From: Aggregatilineales bacterium | Lineage (GTDB): Bacteria > Chloroflexota > Anaerolineae > Aggregatilineales > Ch27 | Direction of reading: 5' to 3' | Length of the DNA stretch: 64,000 nucleotides | Assembly: GCA_029976005.1 (NCBI GenBank) | Contig: JARKOQ010000149.1 | Span: 68,400-132,399, forward strand | Shown here: positions 13,537 to 62,745 of the stretch, piece after piece | Position numbering within the stretch: the stretch's first letter is position 1 | Layout: each line of letters starts with the position of its first letter | Position numbers and translations under genes: made by a program | The notes under the pieces: model-generated | The model's input: only the letters and a program-made list of their open reading frames with translations | Databases searched by the model: none | Told to the model about the DNA's origin: nothing

Positions 13537-14754
13537 CTACAGGCCGGCTTCCCTGCGGAGCAGGTCGGCCTTGTCGATGCGCTCCCACGGCACATTCAGA
13601 TCGTCGCGGCCGAAGTGGCCGTAAGCGGCCACGGCCCGGTACAGAGGCCGGCGCAGGTCGAGGTCGCGGATGATCGCCGCCGGGCGCAGGTCGAAATACT
13701 TGCGCACCAGCTCCTCGATCTTGGCATCGCTGATCTTGCCCGTGCCAAAGGTTTCCACCGCCAGGCTGGTCGGATGCGCCACGCCGATGGCATAGCTGAC
13801 CTGAAGCTCGACGCGATCCGCCAGACCCGCCGCCACGATGTTCTTGCAGACGTAGCGCGCCATGTACGCCCCGGAGCGGTCCACCTTCGTCGGGTCCTTG
13901 CCGCTGAACGCGCCGCCGCCATGCCGGGCCACACCGCCGTAGGTGTCGACGATGATCTTACGGCCGGTCAGCCCGGCGTCGCCCATCGGGCCGCCGGTCA
14001 CGAAACGGCCGGTCGGGTTGACCAGGATGCGCGTCCGGTCGTCCAACAGCTCACCGGGGACGACCTTGCGGATCACGTGCTCGATGATGTCCGCGCGGAT
14101 CTGATCCTGGGTAACCTCCGGAGCGTGCTGGGTGCTGACGATGATCGTGTCCACGCGCACCGGCTTGCCGTAAGCATACTCGACCGTGACCTGGCTTTTG
14201 CCGTCCGGACGCAGGTATTCCAGCGTGCCGTTCTTGCGGACTTCGGTCAGGCGGCGGGCCAGCTTGTTGGCCAGGCTGCTGGTCAGGGGCATGAATTCCG
14301 GGGTTTCGTTGCAGGCGAACCCGATCATCATGCCCTGGTCGCCCGCGCCAATCGCATCGATCTGGGCATCGGTCATCTCGCCGGTTTTGGCTTCGAGCGC
14401 CTTGTCGACGCCCAGCGCGATGTCCGCGCTCTGTTCCTTGATGGACACGATGACGCCGCATGTCTCCGAGTCAAAACCGTACTTGGCGCGGGTATAGCCG
14501 ATCTCCTCGACCGTCTTGCGCGCCAGGCTGCCGATGTCGACGTAGGTGCTGGTGGTGATCTCGCCCATGACCAGGATCAGGCCGGTGGTCACCGCCGTCT
14601 CGCACGCCACGCGGGCGTCGGGATCATCCTTGATAATGGCGTCGAGGACGGCATCCGAAATCTGGTCGCAGATTTTGTCCGGATGGCCTTCCGTGACGCT
14701 CTCAGACGTAAAGTAATACTTCGGGGACGTCATAAATGTTGTATTGCTGCTCAC
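13537..14754 (-). CDS. metK: S-adenosylmethionine synthetase
   Basis: [51 protein letters not shown] 14754 lies 8 nt after AAGGAG; an alternative ATG is at 14733. Confidence 0.95.
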
Positions 14755-14867: not shown

Positions 14868-14890
14868 CTGGAACACGGCGGAATATCCAA

Positions 14891-15002
14891 TCATCTGCCA
14901 GAGGATGCCTCCTCTGCCGGAATTAGCACCTTCCTGGCCGATTGCGACAGGCCAGGGGTTGCCGCGGTTTCGTTGGGCCGGTCCCTCCACCGCTCTGGAT
15001 GA
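14891..15002 (-). promoter_or_regulatory. SAM-I (S-box) riboswitch aptamer upstream of metK
   Basis: The minus strand reads UCAUCCAGAGCGGUGGAGGGACCGGCCCAACGAAACCGCGGCAACC...GGAAGGUGCUAAUUCCGGCAGAGGAGGCAUCCUCUGGCAGAUGA. This matches the conserved S-box cores AGAGxGGUGGAGGGAxxGGCCCxAxGAAxCC..GCAACC and GGUGCUAAxUCC, with P1 closure UCAUC/GAUGA. Confidence 0.9.
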
Positions 15003-15218
15003 CGTATGCAGTTGGCATGCGGTATGGTAGCATGCCAGCCATGCCGTGTCAAGCCAACTCGAATCGGGCCATTCCGAATTGGGAGCAAGGTCATACTCCA
15101 AGTCGGAAATGCCACCCTCGAATCCGGCCAGCGCCGGCTCCCCGCCGGGGAGCGAGCGCGATTGATTTTGACCATATCGGGGGTACACTAGAAGGGGTAG
15201 GCGAGGAGAAAACGTGGC

Positions 15219-52889: not shown

Positions 52890-52939
52890 TCTTTCGCCGA
52901 CGAATGTGGTCTGTTCGAATTCATAGAGAGGGCAAGTCT

Positions 52940-55732
52940 ATGGATGCCAAGCTGGAAATTCCTCCCAGCCCCTCATCAACCAGGCGCCGCCGGGGACAGG
53001 CGCTGGCAGAATTTGCGCTCACGCTGCCGATTCTGCTGTTACTACTGTTCGGCATCATCGAGTTCGCCCGGATCTTCCAGGCCTGGGTGACCCTGCAGAA
53101 CGCGGCGCGCACGGCGGCCCGTTATGCCATCACCGGGCAGGTGGAAGCCGCCGAACTGGAAAAAATCGCCGATACCTACGCCATCAGTGTCGGCAACACG
53201 GCGGCGGCGGCCGCGGCCGATACCCGCAACCAGCTCTGTCTGAACGGCGACTATCGCGGGACGCACTCGGCTTTCGGCCCGTACACGCCCGCCGGGTATC
53301 AGGACTACGAGTCGGTCTTCGCCAATCACTGGGACGGCCTCGACTGCGAGCCGGGCAGTGAAGATCACCAGGGTCTGATCAACGACATGGGGCGTATCGG
53401 CTCCATCCGCAACCAGGCGCGCATCGGCGCGGCCGGTCTGGACGTCCGGATGTGGGATGACCAGGCCTACGCCATCGAAGCCGATCCCGGAACCGGCGAC
53501 TTCGTGCGCTGGGCCAATGATACCGTGCCCGGTTGGTTCCACGTCTTCATCTGCTCGTCGCGGCCCACCCTGCGCGAAGGCGACGACGCCACGCCGCGCT
53601 ACACCGCCAATCGTGACAACCTGACCTGCGTCGTTCAGGAATACCGTGGCACGCCGCCTTCCGGCTACACGGACTACCACGACGACGATCAGACCGTCAA
53701 TAACTATCAGAATCTCCAGTGGGACGCCGGCGGCCCCGGCGACGCGGTCGAGATCATCATCACCTTCAACCACCCACTGATCACCCCGCTGGCCCTGCCG
53801 ACCTACGTCCAACTCCAGGCCCGCCGCGTGATGGTCAACGAAGCCTTCCGCTCCTCGCGCGTGGTCAACCTGCCGCCGGCGCTGGCGCGGGCGTCCGCGA
53901 CTCCTTCGGATACGCCGACGGCTTCCGACGTGCCTCCGGCGACCGATACCGCGACGCCGACCGACACCCCGACGGCGACCGCCACGGCGACCCAGACCGG
54001 GACGCCCACCGCCACCGCGACCCCGGACTGCTCGATGCTGTCGATCGTCAGCACCGGCTTCAGCGGGGCCTACTTCCAGGTCAGCATCCGCAACGAGAAC
54101 ATCGCCGCACTCAACCTGGAAGGCGTGCGGCTCGAATGGCCCAAGCACGCGCTGTTCCCGAACATGTACGCCGACCTGATGCAGTGGCAAGGCCAGACGC
54201 ACTGGGATGGCACGGATACCACGCCGCCCACCATCACCGGCGCCGCGCCTGGCCCTGGGACCGACGCGACCTGGATCAGCAGCGCCAACGTGCGTCTGAA
54301 TGGCAACAGCACCGCCAACTGGCAGGTTCGCTTCGCCAACGGCCCGTTCAACATGTCGGCCTACTACAACCGTCCGGACTTCACCGGGTCGACCTGGTAC
54401 TTCAGCAATGGGTGCGTCCTCAGCTACTCGGAGGCGACCCCGACGCCGATACGCGGAACGCCCACCTTCACGCCTACCCCGGTCTGCGGCACCTACAACC
54501 TGCGCTTCGAGGCCTTCTGGCCGCACGGCGTGGTTCAGTTCAGCATCACCAACCCAGGCGGCACGCCGATCCAGATCACCGGTATCGACATGCGCTGGAT
54601 CTATTACTACAGCGGGATGAATCTCGACTTCATCTCCATCGGAGGCACCAACGCCTTCGACCCGGCCACGGTCATCGTCTGGAACGGCAACGACGTGGGG
54701 ACAACCGTCGGGGCGGTAACCAACACGGCGACCGGCACGCTGGGTAGCGAACCGACCTGGCTGATCAACGCCACGGTCAATGTGGGCGACACCGTCTACA
54801 TGTGGCTGGACTACGACGGTACGTCCGAGTCGCTCGATACGGGCTACGGCGCCAAGGACTACGACTTCAACGGCACGCGGATCGCCTTCGACAACGGCTG
54901 CATCATCACGCCGCCCGTCATCAACACGCCCATCCCGCCCCAGTGCGGTGACAGCATCGTTCAGAGTTCGCTCGGCGAGCAGTGCGACGACGGCAACACG
55001 GTCCAGAACGATAGCTGCGACAACAACTGCAAGTTCACCTGCGGCAACAACGTGGTGCTTGCGCCGGAAACCTGCGACGACGGCAACCGGGTCAGCGGCG
55101 ACGGCTGTAACAGCTCGTGCCGCCTTGAGTACTGCGGTGACGGCGCGACCCAGTCGGCCCTCGGCGAGCAGTGCGACGACGGCAACACCAACGACACGGA
55201 TAGCTGCAGCAACACCTGCCGGTACACCTGCGGCAATGGCGTCGTCGCCGGCTCCGAGCAGTGCGACGACGGCAACCGGACCAGCGGCGACGGCTGCAAC
55301 AGCTCGTGCCAGAAGGAATACTGCGGTGACGGCACGATCAACAAGGACTACACCACGGGCGTGGTGGATCAGTGCGACGACGGCAACAAGAACAGCGGCG
55401 ACGGCTGCTCGAGCACCTGCCGCATCGAAGCCCCGGTCTGCGGGAACAGCCGGGTGGAAACGGGCGAGCAGTGCGATCCGCCCAGCAGCGCGAATTACTG
55501 CTCCAGCACCTGCCAGCGTATCCCGTACTGCGGCGACGGCACGGTCAACCAGGCCAGCGAGCAGTGCGAGCCGCCCAATACCTCGACCTGCAATGCGACC
55601 TGCCAGCGTATCATAGCTGCGCCGGTCTGCGGTAACGGCGTGGTGGAAACCGGCGAGGAGTGCGAGCCGCCCAACACCTCGACGTGCAGCTCGACCTGCA
55701 AGATCAGCATCTGCATGGACTGCGGCAGCTAG
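52940..55732 (+). CDS. Giant TadE-like-anchored surface protein with two internal paralogous domains and eight C-terminal Cys-rich repeats
   Basis: GAGAGGG precedes ATG 52940. RRGQALAEFALTLPILLLLLFGIIEFARIFQAWVTLQNAARTAARYA is a TadE-like domain. Thr/Pro linkers are present. The C-terminus carries repeats of the form CGDG....GEQCDDGN...GDGCSS.C. Confidence 0.75.
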   Translation: MDAKLEIPPSPSSTRRRRGQALAEFALTLPILLLLLFGIIEFARIFQAWVTLQNAARTAARYAITGQVEAAELEKIADTYAISVGNTAAAAAADTRNQLCLNGDYRGTHSAFGPYTPAGYQDYESVFANHWDGLDCEPGSEDHQGLINDMGRIGSIRNQARIGAAGLDVRMWDDQAYAIEADPGTGDFVRWANDTVPGWFHVFICSSRPTLREGDDATPRYTANRDNLTCVVQEYRGTPPSGYTDYHDDDQTVNNYQNLQWDAGGPGDAVEIIITFNHPLITPLALPTYVQLQARRVMVNEAFRSSRVVNLPPALARASATPSDTPTASDVPPATDTATPTDTPTATATATQTGTPTATATPDCSMLSIVSTGFSGAYFQVSIRNENIAALNLEGVRLEWPKHALFPNMYADLMQWQGQTHWDGTDTTPPTITGAAPGPGTDATWISSANVRLNGNSTANWQVRFANGPFNMSAYYNRPDFTGSTWYFSNGCVLSYSEATPTPIRGTPTFTPTPVCGTYNLRFEAFWPHGVVQFSITNPGGTPIQITGIDMRWIYYYSGMNLDFISIGGTNAFDPATVIVWNGNDVGTTVGAVTNTATGTLGSEPTWLINATVNVGDTVYMWLDYDGTSESLDTGYGAKDYDFNGTRIAFDNGCIITPPVINTPIPPQCGDSIVQSSLGEQCDDGNTVQNDSCDNNCKFTCGNNVVLAPETCDDGNRVSGDGCNSSCRLEYCGDGATQSALGEQCDDGNTNDTDSCSNTCRYTCGNGVVAGSEQCDDGNRTSGDGCNSSCQKEYCGDGTINKDYTTGVVDQCDDGNKNSGDGCSSTCRIEAPVCGNSRVETGEQCDPPSSANYCSSTCQRIPYCGDGTVNQASEQCEPPNTSTCNATCQRIIAAPVCGNGVVETGEECEPPNTSTCSSTCKISICMDCGS
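54944..55729 (+). repeat. Eight tandem Cys-rich repeats (Myxococcus cysteine-rich repeat / DUF4215-like), coding
   Basis: Units of about 30-38 aa each have 4 Cys, for example CGNGVVAGSEQCDDGNRTSGDGCNSSCQKEY. In the last three units DDGN is replaced by EPPNTSTC. Confidence 0.8.
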
Positions 55733-55762: not shown

Positions 55763-55797
55763 AAGCGCCCCCGGAGCCTGAGGTTCCGGGGGCGCTT
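55763..55797. terminator. Bidirectional hairpin terminator between convergent genes
   Basis: AAGCGCCCCCGGA-GCCTGAGGT-TCCGGGGGCGCTT, a 13-bp stem. Confidence 0.6.
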
Positions 55798-55828: not shown

Positions 55829-56572
55829 CTACAGCGCGCCGATCCGGCGGAGCTTGGCCCGGACTTCCATCCGCGATTCGCGCATGGCCTCCTCCAGGTA
55901 AGGCAGCGCCAGCCAGCCGTTCATCAACCCAAAGAACGCCCCGGTCACCGTCCGGAACAGCGGCGTCGACTCGCGCACCGGCCACAGGCTGATCGGCGGC
56001 GCGCTGAGGAGCTGGCTCACCCCATCCAGCGCGATCGGCCCCAATCCCAGAAAGGCATACAGTAGCAGGGGCACCGGCCGCAGCCTGCGCCGCACGAAGG
56101 CGAAAAATACGGAAAAGGCCAGCAGCGCGCCATAGGTGGCGATGTCCCGCTCGCACAGCGCGACCTTGTAACCCATCACCTCATTGCCGACAAACGTCCG
56201 GGACAGTTCGATCAGCTCGACCGACCACTGGCTCAGATCGGGCACGTCCTGGAAATACGGGTCGCGGCTGGCATACGTCTCGTACGAAGCCAGCCCATCC
56301 ACCCCGGCAACGGCTCTGGGATAGGCCGCCTGCTCGCCGAACAGGAACCAGGATCGAAAGGCGAACTGGTGGCACAGGGGCGCATACATCGCGTAGATCA
56401 CGCGCGCCGGCCCTTCCGCACCCAGGTGCATCAGCGTGGGGGCGAGAAAAGGCAGTCCCACGAACAGCGCGAAGAAGCCGGTCACCAGCCACAACCAGGT
56501 CTTGCTCAGCCACAATACGGCCCGCTGGGCGCGAATCGCGCGGCGGCGGGCAGCTTCGTCATTGACAGGCAT
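55829..56572 (-). CDS. DUF2085 membrane protein
   Basis: ATG 56572. PLCHQFAFRSWFLFG and ALCERDIATYGALLAF match the DUF2085 Cys/His pattern. Confidence 0.7.
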   Translation of the reverse strand: MPVNDEAARRRAIRAQRAVLWLSKTWLWLVTGFFALFVGLPFLAPTLMHLGAEGPARVIYAMYAPLCHQFAFRSWFLFGEQAAYPRAVAGVDGLASYETYASRDPYFQDVPDLSQWSVELIELSRTFVGNEVMGYKVALCERDIATYGALLAFSVFFAFVRRRLRPVPLLLYAFLGLGPIALDGVSQLLSAPPISLWPVRESTPLFRTVTGAFFGLMNGWLALPYLEEAMRESRMEVRAKLRRIGAL

Positions 56573-56642
56573 GGTTCCTTCCGTATCCAGATCAGGTCCG
56601 GCGACTCCGCGCCGCCCACGGCCAGACTCGCGCATGAACCGC

Positions 56643-58265
56643 TCAACTCGGACTGGCCCCGGTGGGATTGTCCAGAGCAGCCTGCACGTACCTCTCCAGT
56701 TGCTCCGCCGTCAGCACGCCCAGATGGCGGGCCACGATCACACCCTCCCGATTCACGATGAAGGTCGATGGCATGCTGATCACCTGGTAAACGCCCGCCG
56801 TGATCCGCTCGTCGGGATCGAGCACCAGCGGGAAGGTCAGCCCGAACTCCTGGCGGAAGGCGGCCACGCGCCCGGCGGATTCGGCCCGATTCACCCCCAC
56901 GACCAGCACGTCCTGATCGGCATAACGCTCGGCGGCCGCCTGCAAGTCGGGCATCTCGGTCCGGCAGGGACCGCACCAGGTCGCCCAGAAATTGAGCACG
57001 ATCACGCTGCCCCGCGTTTCGCTCAGGGTGAAAGATTGGTTGCCGTCGGTCACGGTCTCGAAATCGGGCGCGATCAGCCCTTCATCCAGCCCGACGGCGG
57101 GCAGATCGGCGGATTCCAGCGGCGCGAGGCTGCCCAGAATGCCCGACGCGGCCGCCTCCCCTCCGGGAGATGCGGGCGCGGCTGCATCGCCCTGCCCCGC
57201 CGGGACGTAGTTCAGGCCCGCGTCCATGCACGCCCCAACCTCGCCCAGACCGATCCGGCCGCTGAACAGCTCCGTCGCGCAATGTTCCAGGTTAATCGAG
57301 AAGTCACCGGCCGAACCAAGCTGGCTGAATTGCTGAAGCTGCCCGGTCAGCACCAGCACTCCGATCACGATCAGGAACAGGCCGCTCACCAGCTCGATCG
57401 TCTTCATGTGGCGCTGCAAGCGGCGCAGCAAGCCCTGCATCCGATCCAGGGCGACGGCAGTCAGCAGGAAAGGCACCCCCAGCCCCAGCGAGTACGCGGT
57501 CAGCAGCAGCCCGGCCTGGCTCAGCGATCCCCCGTTGGCGGCCAGAGTCAGCACCGCGCCATACACCGGGCCGATGCACGGCGTCCACCCGGCGGAAAAG
57601 ACCACGCCCATCAGGGCCGACCCGGCATACCCGGCTTCGCTGCGCGCCTGCATCTGGCGGCGCGTATCGGCATACAGCACCGTTTGCAAGCGAGTCAGAG
57701 TCTTCATCCAGAAATCGCCGGGCCGGGTCAGCGCCCCACCCAGCACCAGCCAGCCTGCGTACAGCCCCACCCCGATCGCGATTGGGATCAGCGTTACCAG
57801 CGACCAGGCCAGCACCAGCCCAACGAGCACTTCGACGGCCAGCGTGATCGCGTAACCTACGCCGTTATTCATCTGGCCGGTCTGGCCCATCACCCAGCCA
57901 ATCACGCGCGGCAGAACGCCCATGACGTGCAACCCGAAGAGCACGATCACAAGGCCGCCCAGGCGGGTCAGGATTTCCTGCACGTCCACCACCGAGCCGC
58001 GCAGGGCCAGCGATCCGGCCGTGGTCAGCAGGCCGAAGGTGACGAAGACAAACGTGAAGCCCAGCACGAAAAAGAGGCCATGGATCAGGGTGTTGAAGCG
58101 ATTCTGGTGCGCGGCGACCGCGCCGCCGCCCGCCGTCGCCGCGACCTGAGTCGTCACCTGCCCGCCCATGTAGCCCACGTAGGCCGGCACCAGTGGCAGC
58201 ACGCAGGGCGAGATAAATGACACCAGCCCGGCGATGAAGGCGATTCCAATCGTGATATCGGCCAT
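56643..58265 (-). CDS. CcdA/DsbD-type thiol-disulfide transporter fused to a TlpA/ResA-like thioredoxin domain
   Basis: N-terminus FIAGLVSFISPCVLPLVPAYVGY and a second GWTPCIGPV (CcdA Cys pair). C-terminus VIVLNFWATWCGPCRTEMPDL (WCGPC). Confidence 0.85.
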   Translation of the reverse strand: MADITIGIAFIAGLVSFISPCVLPLVPAYVGYMGGQVTTQVAATAGGGAVAAHQNRFNTLIHGLFFVLGFTFVFVTFGLLTTAGSLALRGSVVDVQEILTRLGGLVIVLFGLHVMGVLPRVIGWVMGQTGQMNNGVGYAITLAVEVLVGLVLAWSLVTLIPIAIGVGLYAGWLVLGGALTRPGDFWMKTLTRLQTVLYADTRRQMQARSEAGYAGSALMGVVFSAGWTPCIGPVYGAVLTLAANGGSLSQAGLLLTAYSLGLGVPFLLTAVALDRMQGLLRRLQRHMKTIELVSGLFLIVIGVLVLTGQLQQFSQLGSAGDFSINLEHCATELFSGRIGLGEVGACMDAGLNYVPAGQGDAAAPASPGGEAAASGILGSLAPLESADLPAVGLDEGLIAPDFETVTDGNQSFTLSETRGSVIVLNFWATWCGPCRTEMPDLQAAAERYADQDVLVVGVNRAESAGRVAAFRQEFGLTFPLVLDPDERITAGVYQVISMPSTFIVNREGVIVARHLGVLTAEQLERYVQAALDNPTGASPS

Positions 58266-58372
58266 GCCCGCACTCCTCTATCCGCCGGAATCGGTCCGGC
58301 TCCGCGTCCGATCCTTAGACGCCGCACCCCCCGCGATCGTTACCTGACTATCCGCCGAGAGACCGATCCGGC

Positions 58373-59233
58373 TCAGACCACGTCCAGCGGCGCGCCTTCC
58401 GGCAACCAGCCGTACAGCCAGCGCGCCAGCGCGGGATGCACTTCCCAGCCCGCGCCCGTTCCGGCCCGGCCAAACCGGTTGTGCCAGTGCGCGCCATAAA
58501 GACGCACCGGCCCGGCGCGCAAAACCCACGCCGCGCCGGGAGGCAATGCCGCGCCGGAGGGCGCGCGGCCTTCCAGGCGATAGCGGCCCGCTTCCAGCCC
58601 GGCAGGCGGCGCGGCGGGCAGGCGCAGTACAGCCCCCTCGCCTTCGAGCGCGAGGACGATCCCGGCCACCCGGTCGAGGCGCAGGCCGCGCCGGGCGGCC
58701 TCCGCCTGGGGCACCGGGGGGACGTCCACCACCGCCCAGCGATCGGCGGAAGTCCACCCTAGCGGCTCGCTGCCCGGTTGAGGCGCAACGCCCAGCCAGT
58801 CGCCAATCCCAACCAGGCGATCCGAGGCGGCCATTACGCCGCCATACCCGACCCGCCCCACCAGCGGCGCATCCGCCGCGGCCCACGCCCGCAGCGGGGC
58901 GACCGGCGCATTCACGCATACCCAACCACAGCCAACCAGCGGCGCGACCCCGGCCAGGGGAAGCATCGGCTGGGCATCCTCGCGGCGCAGGTAGCCCGCG
59001 CCGGTGGCATACCAGTCCCCGGCCGCTTCGCGGACCCGTACCACGCTATCCGGCCACAAACACCCCACAACCTCGGCCCCGACGGCAGGCTGCCGGTAGA
59101 GGCTGGCGGCGGTCAGGACGCGTGCCTCCACGACCTGCGGCGCGTCCGGCAGGCCCAGATCGATCGGCAGGGTCGAGGCCAGCGCGGCCGCGCCACACCA
59201 GCCCAGAAACGTCCGCCGTGAAATCACGCCCAA
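58373..59233 (-). CDS. Tat-signal exported hypothetical protein
   Basis: SRRTFLGWCGAAALA is a twin-arginine motif. The start is a non-ATG codon (TTG 59233 or GTG 59227). I recognise no catalytic motif. Confidence 0.55.
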   Translation of the reverse strand: MGVISRRTFLGWCGAAALASTLPIDLGLPDAPQVVEARVLTAASLYRQPAVGAEVVGCLWPDSVVRVREAAGDWYATGAGYLRREDAQPMLPLAGVAPLVGCGWVCVNAPVAPLRAWAAADAPLVGRVGYGGVMAASDRLVGIGDWLGVAPQPGSEPLGWTSADRWAVVDVPPVPQAEAARRGLRLDRVAGIVLALEGEGAVLRLPAAPPAGLEAGRYRLEGRAPSGAALPPGAAWVLRAGPVRLYGAHWHNRFGRAGTGAGWEVHPALARWLYGWLPEGAPLDVV

Positions 59234-59341
59234 ACCTGCACCCCGTTCAGCCCTCCCCGATCCTCTACGGATCGACGCGGTCCGGCACGAAAACCGGGGG
59301 ATTACCCCCGGTTCGATCCCCTGGTTTATTGTACTGGCCGA

Positions 59342-59935
59342 TCAGCCTCCGGCAACCAGCCGGTCGAGCGCGGCCTGAAGCTGTTCCTCAGTCTGGTAGC
59401 CGACGAGGCGCTCCACCAGGTTGCCCTCCGCATCCAGCAGGACGATCAGCGGGATGGCGGACACCTCGTAACGGTAAGCCAGATCGCGCGTCGACAGGAG
59501 ATCGACGTTGAGAATATCGAATGTCACCCGGTCTGCATATGCTTCTTCAAGCCGTCGCACGGACGGACGCATCGCGTTGCAAGTACTTCACCACCGGGCC
59601 TGGAACTCGACCAGATGCGGCAGCCCGGTACGCTGGATGGCATACGGCGTCGCGGAAAGGTCCTGGGTCGGGATCAGCCCGGCGATGGCCGTCAGGGTCG
59701 CCAGCGGCCCAGCCACGGGCGGGGCCTCGGTCGGCAGGACAAACACGCTGGGCGGCGGCGTGGCGGTGGCGCTCCCAGGCACGGGCGTCGGCAGCGCGGC
59801 GATCTGCCCGCCCAGCGGCGCGCTCGCCCCAGGCAGGGAGCCAACCACCGTCCTGAGGCCGTCTACCAGCAGGGTACAGGCCCCCGTCGCCAGCGCCAGC
59901 AGCGCCAGGGCCAACAGCAGCAGTGCACGTTTCAT
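59342..59935 (-). CDS. Thioredoxin-fold lipoprotein with in-frame TGA at the first position of the CxxC motif (candidate selenoprotein, otherwise a nonsense pseudogene)
   Basis: ATG 59935 follows GAAAGGGG. Signal/lipobox MKRALLLLALALLALATGAC. Track ORFs 59588..59971 and 59342..59572 are in the same frame, split by a single TGA (59588-59590): LVEFQARW-TGA-STCNAMRPSVRRLEEAY...SAIPLIVLL. Confidence 0.6.
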
Positions 59936-60016
59936 CCACAGCCCCTTTCCCGATCGAGCGTTGCAGGGCAATTGTACCGGCGAGCGCCGTGCGCGACGAA
60001 TGCCAGCGCACCCGGC

Positions 60017-61066
60017 TCAGCCGGAAACCCGCGCCAGGATGACGTGGATCGCGTCAGCCCCTGCGGGATAAGCCCCGGAGTCGGAGCCGGGCATCCGGCT
60101 CTGTACAAAGCCTGTCTCATCCGTTGCGCGCACCGCGATCGAAACGTCGCCGGGCCGGTCGGGAGTCCAGCGGATGTACCACTGCGTCCAGGCGGAACGG
60201 CTCACCACCGGGCGCAGCGTGACCGGCATCCAGGGCCCGCCATCGAGACTGACCTCGACCGCGCGAATGGCCCGATCGCCGGCATAGGCCACCCCTTGCA
60301 GGGCGACCGGCTCCCCCACCCGGACCTGGCTGTGCGAGCGGGGAGTGTCGATCCGCGACCAGGTCTTGACCACGCCGGAAGTCGCCCAGCCATGCGAGGC
60401 GGCCTCCCACGTCCCAACCGGCGCATAATCGACCAGGGTGATGGCCTTCAGCCACTTGGGGGATTGCAGCCCGTACCGGCCGGGATAGACCGCGCGCAGC
60501 GGGTGGCCGTGATCGCGGGGCAGCCGCCCGCCGTTCATCTCATACGCCAGCAGGATTCCGGCCCCGGCCGCCTCGACCAGCGGCAGGCCGAGCGTGTACC
60601 CATCCACCGCCTCGAAGCACAGGTGGGTCGCCTCCGGCCGGACGCCCGTCCGGGCCAGCAGATCGGCCAGCCGGACGCCTCGCCAGGTCGCATTGCCGAT
60701 CTGGTCGCCGCCCGGTGGGTTGCCCATGCACATCAGCGTGCAGGTGTCCAGGGTGCTCGGCAGCGTCCATAACTGGGTGAGCGACAGGAATAGCGGCGTC
60801 TCCACCAGCCCGCCGACCGCCAGCCGCCAGGTGCCCAGGTCGATCTCCGGCGCGGACGCGCCGGGCCGGTAGGTCTGGCAAAAGAACTCGCCGTTGGGGG
60901 TGATCAGGGGCCGCTCGTGCGTGAACGTCACCGCACGCGGGGCCGGCTTCGCCATGGGTCCAAGCGCCTCCACCGCCTTGGGCGGCGAGTCCAAGGCCCC
61001 GGTCAGGGCGCGGAAAAACCCCCGGCGCGAAAAACGAGAAGAGCCGGTCGAATCGGGCATACCCAT
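60017..61066 (-). CDS. Sulfite-oxidase-family molybdopterin oxidoreductase (Tat-exported)
   Basis: Tat motif SRRGFFRAL. Mo-binding domain (CMGNPPGG...WRGVRLADLL...GYTLGLPL...LAYEMNGGRLPRDHGHPLRAVYPGRYG...KWL) plus a C-terminal Ig-like dimerisation domain. Start at ATG 61066 or 61060. Confidence 0.85.
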   Translation of the reverse strand: MGMPDSTGSSRFSRRGFFRALTGALDSPPKAVEALGPMAKPAPRAVTFTHERPLITPNGEFFCQTYRPGASAPEIDLGTWRLAVGGLVETPLFLSLTQLWTLPSTLDTCTLMCMGNPPGGDQIGNATWRGVRLADLLARTGVRPEATHLCFEAVDGYTLGLPLVEAAGAGILLAYEMNGGRLPRDHGHPLRAVYPGRYGLQSPKWLKAITLVDYAPVGTWEAASHGWATSGVVKTWSRIDTPRSHSQVRVGEPVALQGVAYAGDRAIRAVEVSLDGGPWMPVTLRPVVSRSAWTQWYIRWTPDRPGDVSIAVRATDETGFVQSRMPGSDSGAYPAGADAIHVILARVSG

Positions 61067-61094
61067 CCTTCCTGAAGCGCATGGCGAATCGGGA

Positions 61095-61571
61095 TCAGGC
61101 CTGGCGTTCGCGCTGGCGGCGTCTGGCCGCCTCGCGCACCATTGCCACGATCCCCATCAGGCCCTGGCCCTTGCCCATCGAGATATTCCGCCCGAAGATG
61201 GCGAGCACGATGTCGTCGGGAACCTGGGCCACCTGATCCAGCGGCTGGCCGGACAGGGTCTGATCCAGAATAGCCGCCATCGCCATCGCCGACAAGCCCT
61301 GCGGGTTCTCGACGGCGAAATGAAACTTGAGCGTCCCGTCCGGCTGGTCTTCCGACCAGACGTACGCCTCGGATTCGCAGAACGGCACCCGGTGATCGTC
61401 CGGGTAAGGTGGGGCTGCGATCCGGGCGGGCACGGGCTGGAACTGGTCGGCCAGTTCGATCAGATAGGCCGAGCGCTCCTCGCGGTCGGTGAGCAGGCTG
61501 AAATCCTGCAAAACCTGGCTCAACGTTCCGGGAATGTGGGGTGAGTTCACGTATTCATCCTTCCAGGCCAT
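61095..61571 (-). CDS. SufE-family sulfur acceptor protein
   Basis: RSAYLIELADQF, the active-site-type CESEAYVW, and NISMGKGQGLMGI. Confidence 0.8.
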   Translation of the reverse strand: MAWKDEYVNSPHIPGTLSQVLQDFSLLTDREERSAYLIELADQFQPVPARIAAPPYPDDHRVPFCESEAYVWSEDQPDGTLKFHFAVENPQGLSAMAMAAILDQTLSGQPLDQVAQVPDDIVLAIFGRNISMGKGQGLMGIVAMVREAARRRQRERQA

Positions 61572-61648
61572 TGGCAAGCCACACGGCGCGGCGGACGGAC
61601 GCCATCCCGCGCGCCCGCCGCCGCAAATCGACTCTGGATACCTGGGCG

Positions 61649-62512
61649 CTACTTTTCAATCGGGACGCCGACCAGGTTGCCCCACTCCGTCCAACTGCCG
61701 TCGTAGTTGCGCACGGTCTGGAAGCCGAGCAGATAGGTCAGCACGAACCAGGTATGGCTGCTGCGCTCGCCGATCCGGCAGTAGGCCACCGTCGGCCGGG
61801 CCGGGTCCAGCCCGTGTTCCTGCTGGTAGATCGCGCGCAGTTCCTCGGCCGGCTTGAAGGTGCCATCGTCAGGATTGGCCGCCCGCGCCCAGGGGATGTT
61901 GCGCGCACCGGGAATGTGCCCGCCGCGCAGCGCGCCCTCGTTGGGATAGCCCTCCATGTGCGTCCGCTCGCCGCTGTATTCGGCCGGGCTGCGCACATCC
62001 ACAAGCTGGCCCTGGGCCTGAGCATGGGCCAGCACCTGGTCACGGAAGGCCCGGATCCGGCTGTCGTCGCGCGGGTGGGCGCGGTAAGCCGTCGCAGGAT
62101 AGACAGGCTTCTCACGAGTCAATTCGCGGCCCTCCTTTTCCCACTTCAGGCGGCCGCCGTCCATGATCCGGGCGTTGGTATGGCCGAACAACTGGAATAC
62201 CCAGAAGGCATAGCAGGCCCACCAGTTGTTTTTGTCGCCGTAAAAAACAACCGTGGTCGCCGGGGTGATGCCAATCCGCGAGGCCAGGGCCTCGAACCCG
62301 GCCTGATCCAGGTAGTCCCTGCGAACCGGATCGTTCAGGTCAGCCGTCCAGTCTACTTCGACCGCGCCGGGGATGTGCCCCGCCGGATACAGCAGCGGGT
62401 CTTCGTTGGATTCCACGATGCGCACGTCCGGGTCGCCGCGATGCACCGCTACCCACTCGGTCGAAACCAACACGTCAGGCCGCGCGTAACCGCGCTGCGT
62501 GATCTCGGTCAT
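61649..62512 (-). CDS. Thiosulfate/3-mercaptopyruvate sulfurtransferase (tandem rhodanese)
   Basis: AAGGAG lies 8 nt before ATG 62512. Two rhodanese domains with active-site loop [13 protein letters not shown]. Confidence 0.9.
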
Positions 62513-62544: not shown

Positions 62545-62580
62545 AACAAAAAAGCCGCCTGGAGACCTGTCCGGGCGGCT
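62545..62580 (-). terminator. Intrinsic terminator inside the 5' leader of the rhodanese operon (attenuator or riboswitch expression platform)
   Basis: The minus strand reads AGCCGCCCGG-ACAGGUCU-CCAGGCGGCU (10 bp including one G-U) followed by UUUUUUG. It ends about 33 nt before the start codon, upstream of the AAGGAG SD. Confidence 0.65.
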
Positions 62581-62717
62581 GCGTTCACCGAGCCAATTAC
62601 ATTCCCTGGGTCGACCTAGATCGCCATCCCAACCCGGACCGCATCCATGTCCTCCGGACACAGACAGACGCAGACAAAACAGAAACGGAGGTCGGATCGA
62701 AGGTCACTCATGACCAC

Positions 62718-62745
62718 AGCATAACATGCCCGCGATAAAAGTCAA
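62718..62745 (-). promoter_or_regulatory. Sigma-70-like promoter for the rhodanese operon
   Basis: The minus strand reads TTGACT, then a 16-nt spacer (whose last three nt are TGT), then TATGCT. This gives a good -35 and an extended -10 (TGnTATGCT), in the most AT-rich stretch of the window. Confidence 0.5.

Follow-up and report, generated by a model that had tools for sequence, protein, structure and literature searches.

A putative cysteine attenuator, a rhodanese-SufE pair and a predicted selenocysteine thioredoxin relay around an atypical sulfite-oxidase-fold protein in Anaerolineae

Several described systems handle cysteine supply, sulfane sulfur and envelope thiols in bacteria. In mycobacteria, leaderless short open reading frames (sORFs) with polycysteine tracts control the Ms5788-cysA2 operon, which encodes a thiosulfate sulfurtransferase, and five other cysteine loci through masking of the Shine-Dalgarno sequence (bioRxiv 10.1101/834739), and cysteine leader peptides have also been reported in actinobacteria (PMC1262725). 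The rhodanese SseA of Mycobacterium tuberculosis is paired with the SufE-like protein Rv3284 (PMC12375888). In the CcdA-Etrx-MsrAB2 surface reducing system of Streptococcus pneumoniae, a CcdA-type transporter passes reductant to a thioredoxin-fold lipoprotein encoded by a neighbouring gene, and the lipoprotein serves an extracytoplasmic repair or reductase enzyme (PMC3914529); DsbD and ScsB act in related envelope reductive pathways (PMC3322552). Thioredoxin-fold selenoproteins of the UxxC type (Trx, SaoT, UGC-TlpA) carry selenocysteine (Sec) in place of the N-terminal active-site cysteine (PMC13188914). Here we describe a cluster of seven minus-strand genes (positions 55829-62512) with likenesses to each of these systems, located in a 64,000-nt stretch of DNA, hereafter the window, from an Aggregatilineales bacterium (Chloroflexota; Anaerolineae; assembly GCA_029976005.1, contig JARKOQ010000149.1, positions 68,400-132,399 of the forward strand). 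Coordinates below are positions of the 64-kb window unless a contig is named.

We read this cluster as a cysteine-regulated SseA-SufE unit joined to an envelope relay, running from a CcdA-TlpA fusion to a Sec-containing thioredoxin (Trx) and built around an atypical protein of the sulfite-oxidase (SUOX) fold, the Mo protein; we favour this reading with modest confidence. The first module would consist of a leader, the rhodanese and the SufE-like protein. The second would consist of the Mo protein, the Sec-thioredoxin lipoprotein, the Tat-signal protein encoded by gene 5 (TatX), CcdA-TlpA and the DUF2085 protein. The identity and order of the seven genes agree with the original prediction: Pfam assigned families to six of them in that order, once an in-frame TGA in the thioredoxin gene was read through, and left the fifth without a family (Table 1). 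The genes are separated by gaps of 28-108 nt, and comparison with orthologues led to slightly shorter SufE, Mo and DUF2085 genes. The promoter with leader and the 3' hairpin said to bracket the block are also present, at 62745-62718 and 55797-55763; a terminator scan missed the latter owing to the absence of a T run.

Table 1. Features of the cluster, in the order of transcription of the minus strand.
Feature	Position in window	Strand	Characteristics
Promoter: -35 TTGACT, extended -10 TGTTATGCT (TATGCT hexamer; spacer 16-17 nt)	62718..62745	-	almost invariant in eight leaders; A/T-rich region upstream
Leaderless sORF, 31 codons (MSDLRSDLRFCFVCVCLCPEDMDAVRVGMAI)	62616..62711	-	ATG 7 nt past the -10 hexamer; four Cys codons at 62681-62658
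Antiterminator box, putative (GUCCGGGUUGGGAUGGCG)	62621..62639	-	within the sORF, at its 3' end; complement of the terminator's 5' arm
Leader intrinsic terminator (AGCCGCCCGGACAGGUCUCCAGGCGGCU + U6)	62548..62580	-	directly upstream of the ribosome-binding site (RBS) AAGGAG
Tandem-domain rhodanese, SseA/CysA type (thiosulfate sulfurtransferase)	61649..62512	-	Pfam two Rhodanese domains, 1.6e-33; active-site motif CRIGERS
SufE-like protein, putative sulfur acceptor/activator	61095..61577	-	Pfam SufE, 3.4e-13; conserved Cys in PFCES; likely start 61571
Atypical sulfite-oxidase-fold molybdoprotein	60017..61066	-	Pfam Oxidored_molyb, 8e-42, and Mo-co_dimer; TLMCMGN; likely start 61060
Thioredoxin-like lipoprotein, predicted selenoprotein (W-U-S-T-C)	59342..59935	-	Pfam Thioredoxin, 1.8e-15, once the TGA is read through
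In-frame TGA, predicted Sec codon	59588..59590	-	position of the first Cys of WCxxC
Candidate bacterial SECIS core	59552..59566	-	stem CCGUC/GACGG, loop CGUGC, 26 nt past the UGA
Terminator-like hairpin (ACCGGGGG-UAAU-CCCCCGGU + UUUU)	59288..59312	-	past the thioredoxin stop codon; conserved in L081 and L091
Tat-signal protein TatX (gene 5)	58373..59233	-	no Pfam family; two SH3b-like domains and a YkuD fold without catalytic Cys
CcdA-type transporter fused to a TlpA/ResA-like domain	56643..58265	-	Pfam DsbD_TM and AhpC-TSA/Redoxin; WCGPC
DUF2085 membrane protein	55829..56635	-	Pfam; motifs CHQFAFRS and LCERD; likely start 56572
GC-rich hairpin between convergent genes	55763..55797	-	probable terminator, weak T tract

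Relatives of the cluster were collected through homologues of two of its products, the Mo protein and the thioredoxin fragment, in exact-protein look-ups. These yielded nine further contigs that bear the label Anaerolineae or Chloroflexota, from NCBI metagenome-assembled genomes and from ENA, JGI and Logan assemblies. The gene order recurs in L081, L084, L087, L089, L090, L091, L092 and L093, and partly in L085; neighbourhood conservation across Chloroflexota, which the original prediction had named as a check, was thus seen in nine other Anaerolineae contigs. The common order (L081, L084, L087, L089-L092) begins with a divergent M28 peptidase gene, followed by rhodanese, SufE, Mo, a split thioredoxin, a protein of ~290 residues without a Pfam match, CcdA-TlpA, often a second TlpA, and DUF2085, and it extends to relatives whose Mo protein is ~45-50% identical. 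A MobB and/or CMD gene is inserted behind the Mo gene in L087 and L089. A scan of species-representative genomes found no close relative, the best match reaching 41-47% identity. Profiles built from the orthologues were run on 80 loci from these genomes, and partial clusters were detected in distant Anaerolineae: L004 displayed the order Mo, multihaem cytochrome c, Trx, Trx, TatX, CcdA/TlpA, TlpA2; L007 the order Mo, TatX, CcdA/TlpA, TlpA2, DUF2085; and L006 Mo followed by Trx. All three have Mo proteins of 40-47% identity and upstream flanks that differ from those of the window, which indicates that the cluster is real and older than the immediate family of the window.

The cluster behaves as two separable modules joined at the Mo gene, since L085 retains rhodanese-SufE-Mo alone, L093 has the cluster without rhodanese and SufE, and L004 and L007 likewise hold only the second module. 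Of the combined sulfur/thiol-redox module that had been proposed, the gene identities, their order and the relay are supported, whereas the rhodanese-SufE genes and the envelope genes prove to be separable. This separability also feeds the main rival of our reading, namely that inherited synteny has placed three independent units side by side: a cysteine-regulated SseA-SufE pair, a separate Mo- or pterin-binding protein, and housekeeping envelope thiol reduction, either for CcdA/ResA-type cytochrome c maturation or for mending oxidised cysteines of the envelope. We consider such a juxtaposition possible but unlikely. Close relatives share their flanks (M28 peptidase, TadE genes), so some of the order conservation is simply synteny, and an internal hairpin lies between genes 1-4 and genes 5-7; both points weigh against a single functional assembly. 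Among curated models the TlpA domain best matches ResA and the L004 cluster includes a multihaem cytochrome c, as cytochrome c maturation would have it, but the ResA score is under the cut-off (113 vs 170) and no ResB or ResC genes are nearby. SUOX-fold pterin binders without the Cys ligand (PruR) do exist, and are among the distant fold matches of the Mo protein. Against simple juxtaposition, the Mo, Trx, TatX, CcdA-TlpA and DUF2085 genes remain linked in L004, L006 and L007 despite their different flanks and low identity, and Trx and TatX overlap (L087, L093) or nearly abut (7 nt apart in L090). Both in the window clade and in L006 the Mo gene adjoins the Trx gene, and in L004 the two lie close together; because this adjacency recurs in distant genomes, it favours a functional link between the two proteins.

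The first module opens with a leader that seems to be a ribosome-mediated cysteine transcription attenuator. We aligned the eight leaders that precede a rhodanese gene (window, L081, L085, L087, L089-L092) and found that they share the promoter, an ATG placed 7 nt after the -10 element, a TGY-rich block, a (G/U)CC(C/G)GG box and, just ahead of the RBS, a strong hairpin that carries a U run. At the ATG begins an ORF of 28-40 codons, which has two to four in-frame Cys codons in 8/8 leaders, and the terminator with its U run stands ahead of the RBS in all eight as well. The leader peptides are unrelated apart from their Cys cluster, in which the intervening codons vary and the TGY codons stay in frame: the window has CFVCVCLC, and the relatives have CDCPC..C, CICTC..C, CAACMCMPC, CMC, CMCMAC..C, C...CMCLC and CCCC. 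The box lies ~15-19 nt past the Cys cluster, ahead of the sORF stop, and in ~6/8 leaders its sequence is the complement of the terminator's 5' arm. Box and arm covary, with UCCGGG/CCCGGA in the window and GCCCGG/CCGGGC in others, and the calculated stability of the box-arm duplex in the window is -16 to -20 kcal/mol vs -17 for the terminator.

From this architecture we infer regulation by cysteine supply. Transcription would begin at the leaderless, Cys-rich sORF. When Cys-tRNA is plentiful, the ribosome would reach the sORF stop and cover the box, leaving the terminator to form and transcription to end ahead of the rhodanese gene. Under cysteine shortage, the ribosome would stall at the Cys codons, the box would pair with the terminator arm, and RNA polymerase would continue into the operon; the model thus predicts induction by cysteine limitation. 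What speaks against it is that the enrichment of Cys codons is only modest in each sORF (P 0.02-0.3 each) and that the sequences are related, so the case rests on the conserved architecture. Rfam, at gathering and at permissive thresholds, matched no family in the leader. No attenuator was found upstream of the Mo gene of L093, which is devoid of rhodanese and SufE; therefore the element belongs to the first module.

The likeness to the mycobacterial "Cys ribulon" is considerable: in both cases an operon for a CysA2/SseA-type rhodanese is preceded by a leaderless sORF in which Cys codons cluster, and a response to cysteine supply through ribosome stalling is predicted or shown. However, the mycobacterial elements act on translation and have no terminator, while the leader of the window combines an intrinsic terminator with a complementary antiterminator box, the arrangement of classical transcription attenuation. 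It is further set apart by its phylum (Chloroflexota) and by a C-x-C-x-C pattern in place of the long Cys run of mycobacteria. Because the mycobacterial elements mask the Shine-Dalgarno sequence without a terminator, a Cys attenuator of the terminator type looks like a new variant beside them. It provides a case in which cysteine sensing through a leader peptide and transcription attenuation can be tested, in a phylum whose RNA-level regulation is little studied, and it extends the "Cys ribulon" idea. The window has another RNA switch related to sulfur: a SAM riboswitch (85 bits) at 14888-15005 on the minus strand, directly upstream of the S-adenosylmethionine synthetase gene at 13537-14754.

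Behind this leader, the tandem rhodanese matches SseA of M. tuberculosis (3hzu, E=1.6e-101) and a Thermus rhodanese (1uar, E=2.8e-114). It displays the CRxGxR loop and adjoins the SufE-like gene, whose conserved Cys aligns with that of Thermus SufE. A cytoplasmic rhodanese/SufE pair had been expected here, and the two genes indeed correspond to the adjacent rhodanese and SufE-like genes of the SseA-Rv3284 pair (PMC12375888). In the window, unlike in M. tuberculosis, the putative Cys attenuator precedes this pair, and the genes for the Mo protein and the envelope proteins come after it. An SseA-type rhodanese with a SufE-like partner would mobilise sulfane sulfur in the cytoplasm.

The fourth gene is interrupted by an in-frame TGA (context EFQARW-TGA-STCNAMRPSVRRLEE), which we predict to be a conserved Sec codon, making its thioredoxin-like lipoprotein a predicted selenoprotein. 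The codon recurs in L081, L087, L089-L093 and 16 metagenome contigs, in 23 distinct DNA sequences; the metagenome contigs were retrieved with a pattern spanning only W-TGA-S-x-C-N-A-M. Gene prediction programs break it up into two products, of 115 and 76 residues, and 22/22 short database relatives terminate at the Trp just ahead of the TGA. Such splitting would also be expected if the TGA were a real stop and the gene a pseudogene or two small genes, an explanation to which we give almost no credence. From the TGA to the next ATG, codons vary solely in synonymous ways (AGT/AGC, TGC/TGT, AAC/AAT, GCN with all four bases), and therefore translation must proceed beyond the TGA. The codon is at an identical place in all 23 sequences, with conserved frame and sequence downstream, and a real stop would cut the fold at its CxxC active site. 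Full-length database homologues have Cys at the Sec position (WCSAC in P0108 and P0110), and so do the orthologues that stand in the clusters of L004 (WCGPC) and L006 (WCAPC). TGA is also the ordinary stop codon of five operon genes, and therefore the recoding must be local.

A candidate for the local signal, a bacterial selenocysteine insertion sequence (bSECIS), was found downstream of the UGA. Synonymous sites are frozen over CCGUC-CGUGC-GACGG and only there, as third positions on either side vary freely; this counts against a real stop. Pairing of the helix holds in 95.7% of cells, vs 24-63% in slid controls. It includes two compensatory pairs, G-C to A-U in L116, which costs an Arg-to-Trp change, and C-G to G-C in L104, together with a U-A to U-G change in four sequences. 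The published bSECIS model demands a stem of 4-16 bp, a loop of 3-9 nt with a G within the first two positions, a distance of 16-37 nt past the UGA and a minimum free energy (MFE) of at most -7.5 kcal/mol (PMC13188914). The 5-bp stem, the 5-nt loop with its G-U and the 26-nt spacing of our candidate are within these ranges. Its MFE in the window is -6.7 kcal/mol, short of the -7.5 of the model (relatives -6.5 to -13.9), a weakness that also fits a real stop. Further points weigh against the selenoprotein: the 81 nt around the UGA fold no better than shuffles (z=0.12), the hairpin being visible only comparatively; and no tRNA-Sec was found in the 64-kb window, nor Sec machinery (selA, selB, selC, selD) among the ORFs checked there. 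The Cys-form homologue P0110 stands alone, in a gene context unrelated to this neighbourhood, which counts against our reading of the cluster. Rfam at both thresholds gave nothing near the UGA, and the family falls below the cut-off of every curated selenoprotein model in NCBIfam.

In all members the protein opens with a lipoprotein-type signal, which is canonical in most (L-A-A-C or V-A-G-C) and reads T-G-A-C in the window; behind the signal runs a long Pro/Thr/Ala tether. Like the known UxxC thioredoxin-fold selenoproteins (PMC13188914), it would have Sec for the N-terminal active-site Cys, a Sec/Cys pair among its homologues, and a hairpin 16-37 nt past the UGA with G then U in the apical loop. 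It differs from them in being a long-tethered lipoprotein whose motif is W-U-S-[TA]-C-N-A-M, in a hairpin that is shorter and weaker than usual, and in its Anaerolineae hosts, a group that the review does not mention. These sequences define a predicted family of Sec-containing, membrane-tethered thioredoxins in Anaerolineae that gene callers systematically split, and the annotations need correction. One JGI protein of 202 aa, P0105, has Trp at the Sec position (…HARWWSTCNAM…); either the source pipeline translated the TGA as Trp or this is a genuine TGG variant. A second Sec codon in the CMD (AhpD-like) genes of L087 and L089 was considered and rejected: in the gene of L087 (L087:11612-12018) an in-frame TAG stands in place of the Trp codon of L089, probably through mutation or faulty assembly and not through recoding.

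The reductant for this lipoprotein would come from the CcdA-TlpA fusion. Its CcdA part has the features of a CcdA/DsbD transporter (PF02683), with one Cys in each of two transmembrane motifs, SPCVLP and TPCIGP, and its C-terminal domain (PF00578/PF08534) displays WCGPC. We infer a relay in which CcdA would carry reducing equivalents from the cytoplasm to the fused TlpA domain; the TlpA domain would reduce the tethered lipoprotein, whose attacking residue would be the Sec inserted at the UGA with the aid of the small hairpin; and the lipoprotein would then serve envelope clients. This supports the CcdA-to-TlpA-to-thioredoxin-like relay of the original prediction. As in CcdA-Etrx-MsrAB2, a CcdA-type transporter and a thioredoxin-fold lipoprotein are encoded side by side. 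Unlike in that system, CcdA is fused to a TlpA domain of its own, the lipoprotein has a predicted Sec, the neighbouring enzyme is a SUOX-fold molybdoprotein in place of MsrAB, and DUF2085 and an L,D-transpeptidase (LDT)-like protein are added. A free-standing second TlpA/Redoxin gene (~195-204 residues) lies between CcdA-TlpA and DUF2085 in L087, L089, L090, L092, L093, L004 and L007, and is absent in the window, L081, L084 and L091. In L081 (12765-13901), an 81%-identical relative, CcdA is called at 378 residues without a TlpA domain, maybe because it is truncated or because of a frameshift or assembly fault.

DUF2085 is the most conserved protein of the cluster. Its motifs CHQFAFRS and LCERD are invariant, as are two Cys residues, and 821 relatives were found among 1.8 billion representative proteins. 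Many relatives, at 320-350 residues, are fused to a glutaredoxin-like domain at the N-terminus (PF05768; P0155, P0164, P0257, P0161), which has kept its CxxC in some cases and lost it in others. Because of these fusions, the invariant Cys pair and the genomic context, DUF2085 probably takes part in membrane thiol-disulfide chemistry, and within the cluster it would join the same chemistry as the relay. This gives a first functional handle on a widespread family.

TatX (SRRTFLGWCGAAALASTLPI) has a twin-arginine motif followed by an uncharged run of 17 residues, as a Tat signal should, although its Pfam TAT_signal match is weak (E=0.0025, below the cut-off). An alignment of 15 TatX homologues suggested two SH3b-like repeats and a YkuD-like C-terminal domain, and the AlphaFold model (pLDDT 77) matches LdtMt2, YkuD and SH3b-bearing endolysins. 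TatX thus shares with L,D-transpeptidases such as YkuD and LdtMt2 the C-terminal fold, SH3b-like N-terminal domains and a conserved His (His251, invariant in WHNRFG). It differs in its Tat signal and in having no Cys at the SHGC position in 15/15 members, and since the catalytic Cys is absent throughout the alignment, TatX is not an active transpeptidase. No redox or cofactor motifs were found in it. These features, judged on the predicted structure, point to a peptidoglycan-associated pseudo-enzyme or scaffold and not to an electron carrier, so that the suggestion of this Tat protein as electron partner of the Mo protein was not upheld. L,D-transpeptidases of E. coli are reportedly clients of the DsbD-DsbG sulfenic-acid repair pathway. 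A role of DsbD in sulfenic acid reduction is described (PMC3322552). By analogy, an ancestral link of LDT-fold proteins with envelope reductant relays is plausible.

The Mo protein, where the two modules meet, departs from what had been expected. The original prediction saw in it a Tat-exported enzyme of the sulfite-oxidase family that oxidises sulfite or reduces sulfoxides, encoded on one seven-gene transcript, with rhodanese and SufE feeding sulfur chemistry and DUF2085 or TatX as electron partner; taken whole, we now find this improbable. The fold was correctly recognised. Two-domain sulfite dehydrogenases are the nearest relatives by profile and fold (SorA 2blf, E=2e-48, TM 0.73; chicken SO), and YedY/MsrP resembles only the Mo domain (TM 0.43), the protein of the window having a dimerisation domain as well. 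Assignment to a known enzyme did not hold, as all curated cut-offs were missed (SoxC 135/420, SorA 128/600, SorT 75/570, MsrP 48/207 bits). In a HMMER alignment to SorA, R55 is replaced by Q, H57 by Y and Y236 by H, and R109 is missing; mutants of these four residues exist as PDB entries, and their replacement or loss makes a sulfite pocket unlikely. The Mo-ligand Cys (TLMCMGN), which would suit an active enzyme, is kept in the window, L081, L085, L087 and L089. In roughly half of the orthologues (L092, L090, L091, L093, L006) it is Ser, Asn or His, which weakens a catalytic role in the relay and tells against our own reading as well. The Cys-less orthologues may be pterin-binding or non-catalytic forms. 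L090, L091 and L093 are also devoid of the GN motif, and the Cys-less forms include proteins P0009-P0011, P0013, P0014 and P0018.

Export of the Mo protein is doubtful in this clade. We required of a Tat signal that at least ~12 uncharged, hydrophobic residues come after the twin-arginine motif. The motif is there (SRRGFF; SRRxFL nearly invariant), as the exported enzyme would require, but the longest uncharged run behind it in the window is 6 residues and the hydrophobic region is degenerate. Across the window clade charged residues return 3-10 residues past the RR, and the best 12-residue hydropathy is 0.1-0.9 (window 0.54; L091 1.5), while 1.6-2.3 is reached in TatX and in the Mo proteins of L001, L004 and L006, the latter three having full Tat or Tat-lipoprotein signals. 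The Mo protein may thus not be exported in the window clade, a further difficulty for a relay built around it. A cytoplasmic protein with a vestigial twin-arginine motif is a serious alternative and would fit the tight rhodanese-SufE-Mo trio of L085.

Regarding its partner, the window encodes no cytochrome c or MsrQ, as had been noted, and the relay genes lie next to the Mo gene; both are compatible with an exported enzyme served by its neighbours. In comparison with SorA, SoxC, SorT and MsrP, the Mo protein thus has the two-domain SUOX fold (SorA being the nearest solved structure), the Mo-ligand Cys and a twin-arginine motif, but differs in its missing sulfite-pocket residues, unconserved Cys ligand, degenerate signal and lack of a SorB or MsrQ partner gene. 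In L004, a NapC/NirT-like multihaem cytochrome c gene (L004:11097-11918) lies directly past the Mo gene, followed by two thioredoxin-like genes, and possibly represents the ancestral electron partner, so that at least one lineage may have had a partner with haem. A bolder version of our reading would make the SUOX-fold protein a reductase, or a redox-regulated pterin or molybdenum-cofactor (Moco) protein, driven by the CcdA-TlpA and Sec-thioredoxin relay instead of a haem partner, with the system under a cysteine-sensing transcription attenuator; as a whole, this is a doubtful proposition. If true, a member of the SUOX family would for the first time be seen to draw on thioredoxin-type electron donors, and cysteine would be sensed by a kind of transcription attenuator whose only described counterparts are translational, in mycobacteria. 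In any case, the family flags a SUOX-fold lineage without sulfite pocket and often without the Mo-ligand Cys, whose partner and substrate could reveal a new use of the fold. An apparent SufE-Mo fusion (P0006) was rejected as Rosetta-stone evidence, being a frameshifted assembly artefact. The N-terminal membrane domain of actinobacterial Mo homologues displayed no homology to the profiles of DUF2085, TatX, CcdA and others.

The genes are co-oriented with short gaps, which is compatible with one seven-gene transcript, as in the exported-enzyme scheme and possibly in our own reading. The conserved terminator-like hairpin past the thioredoxin gene, which divides genes 1-4 from genes 5-7, makes a single transcript uncertain and counts against both. 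Genes 1-4 of the window may form a cysteine-attenuated unit with partial read-through into genes 5-7. A promoter-like site at 59355-59328 was rejected as promoter of genes 5-7, as it precedes the internal hairpin and overlaps the stop codon of the thioredoxin gene.

Convergent with the operon, the plus strand of the window encodes a protein of 942 residues (52904-55732) with a TadE-like N-terminus, Thr/Pro-rich linkers and many Cys-rich repeats of the DUF4215 type. DUF2085 is flanked by TadE-family genes also in L081, L087, L089, L091 and L007.

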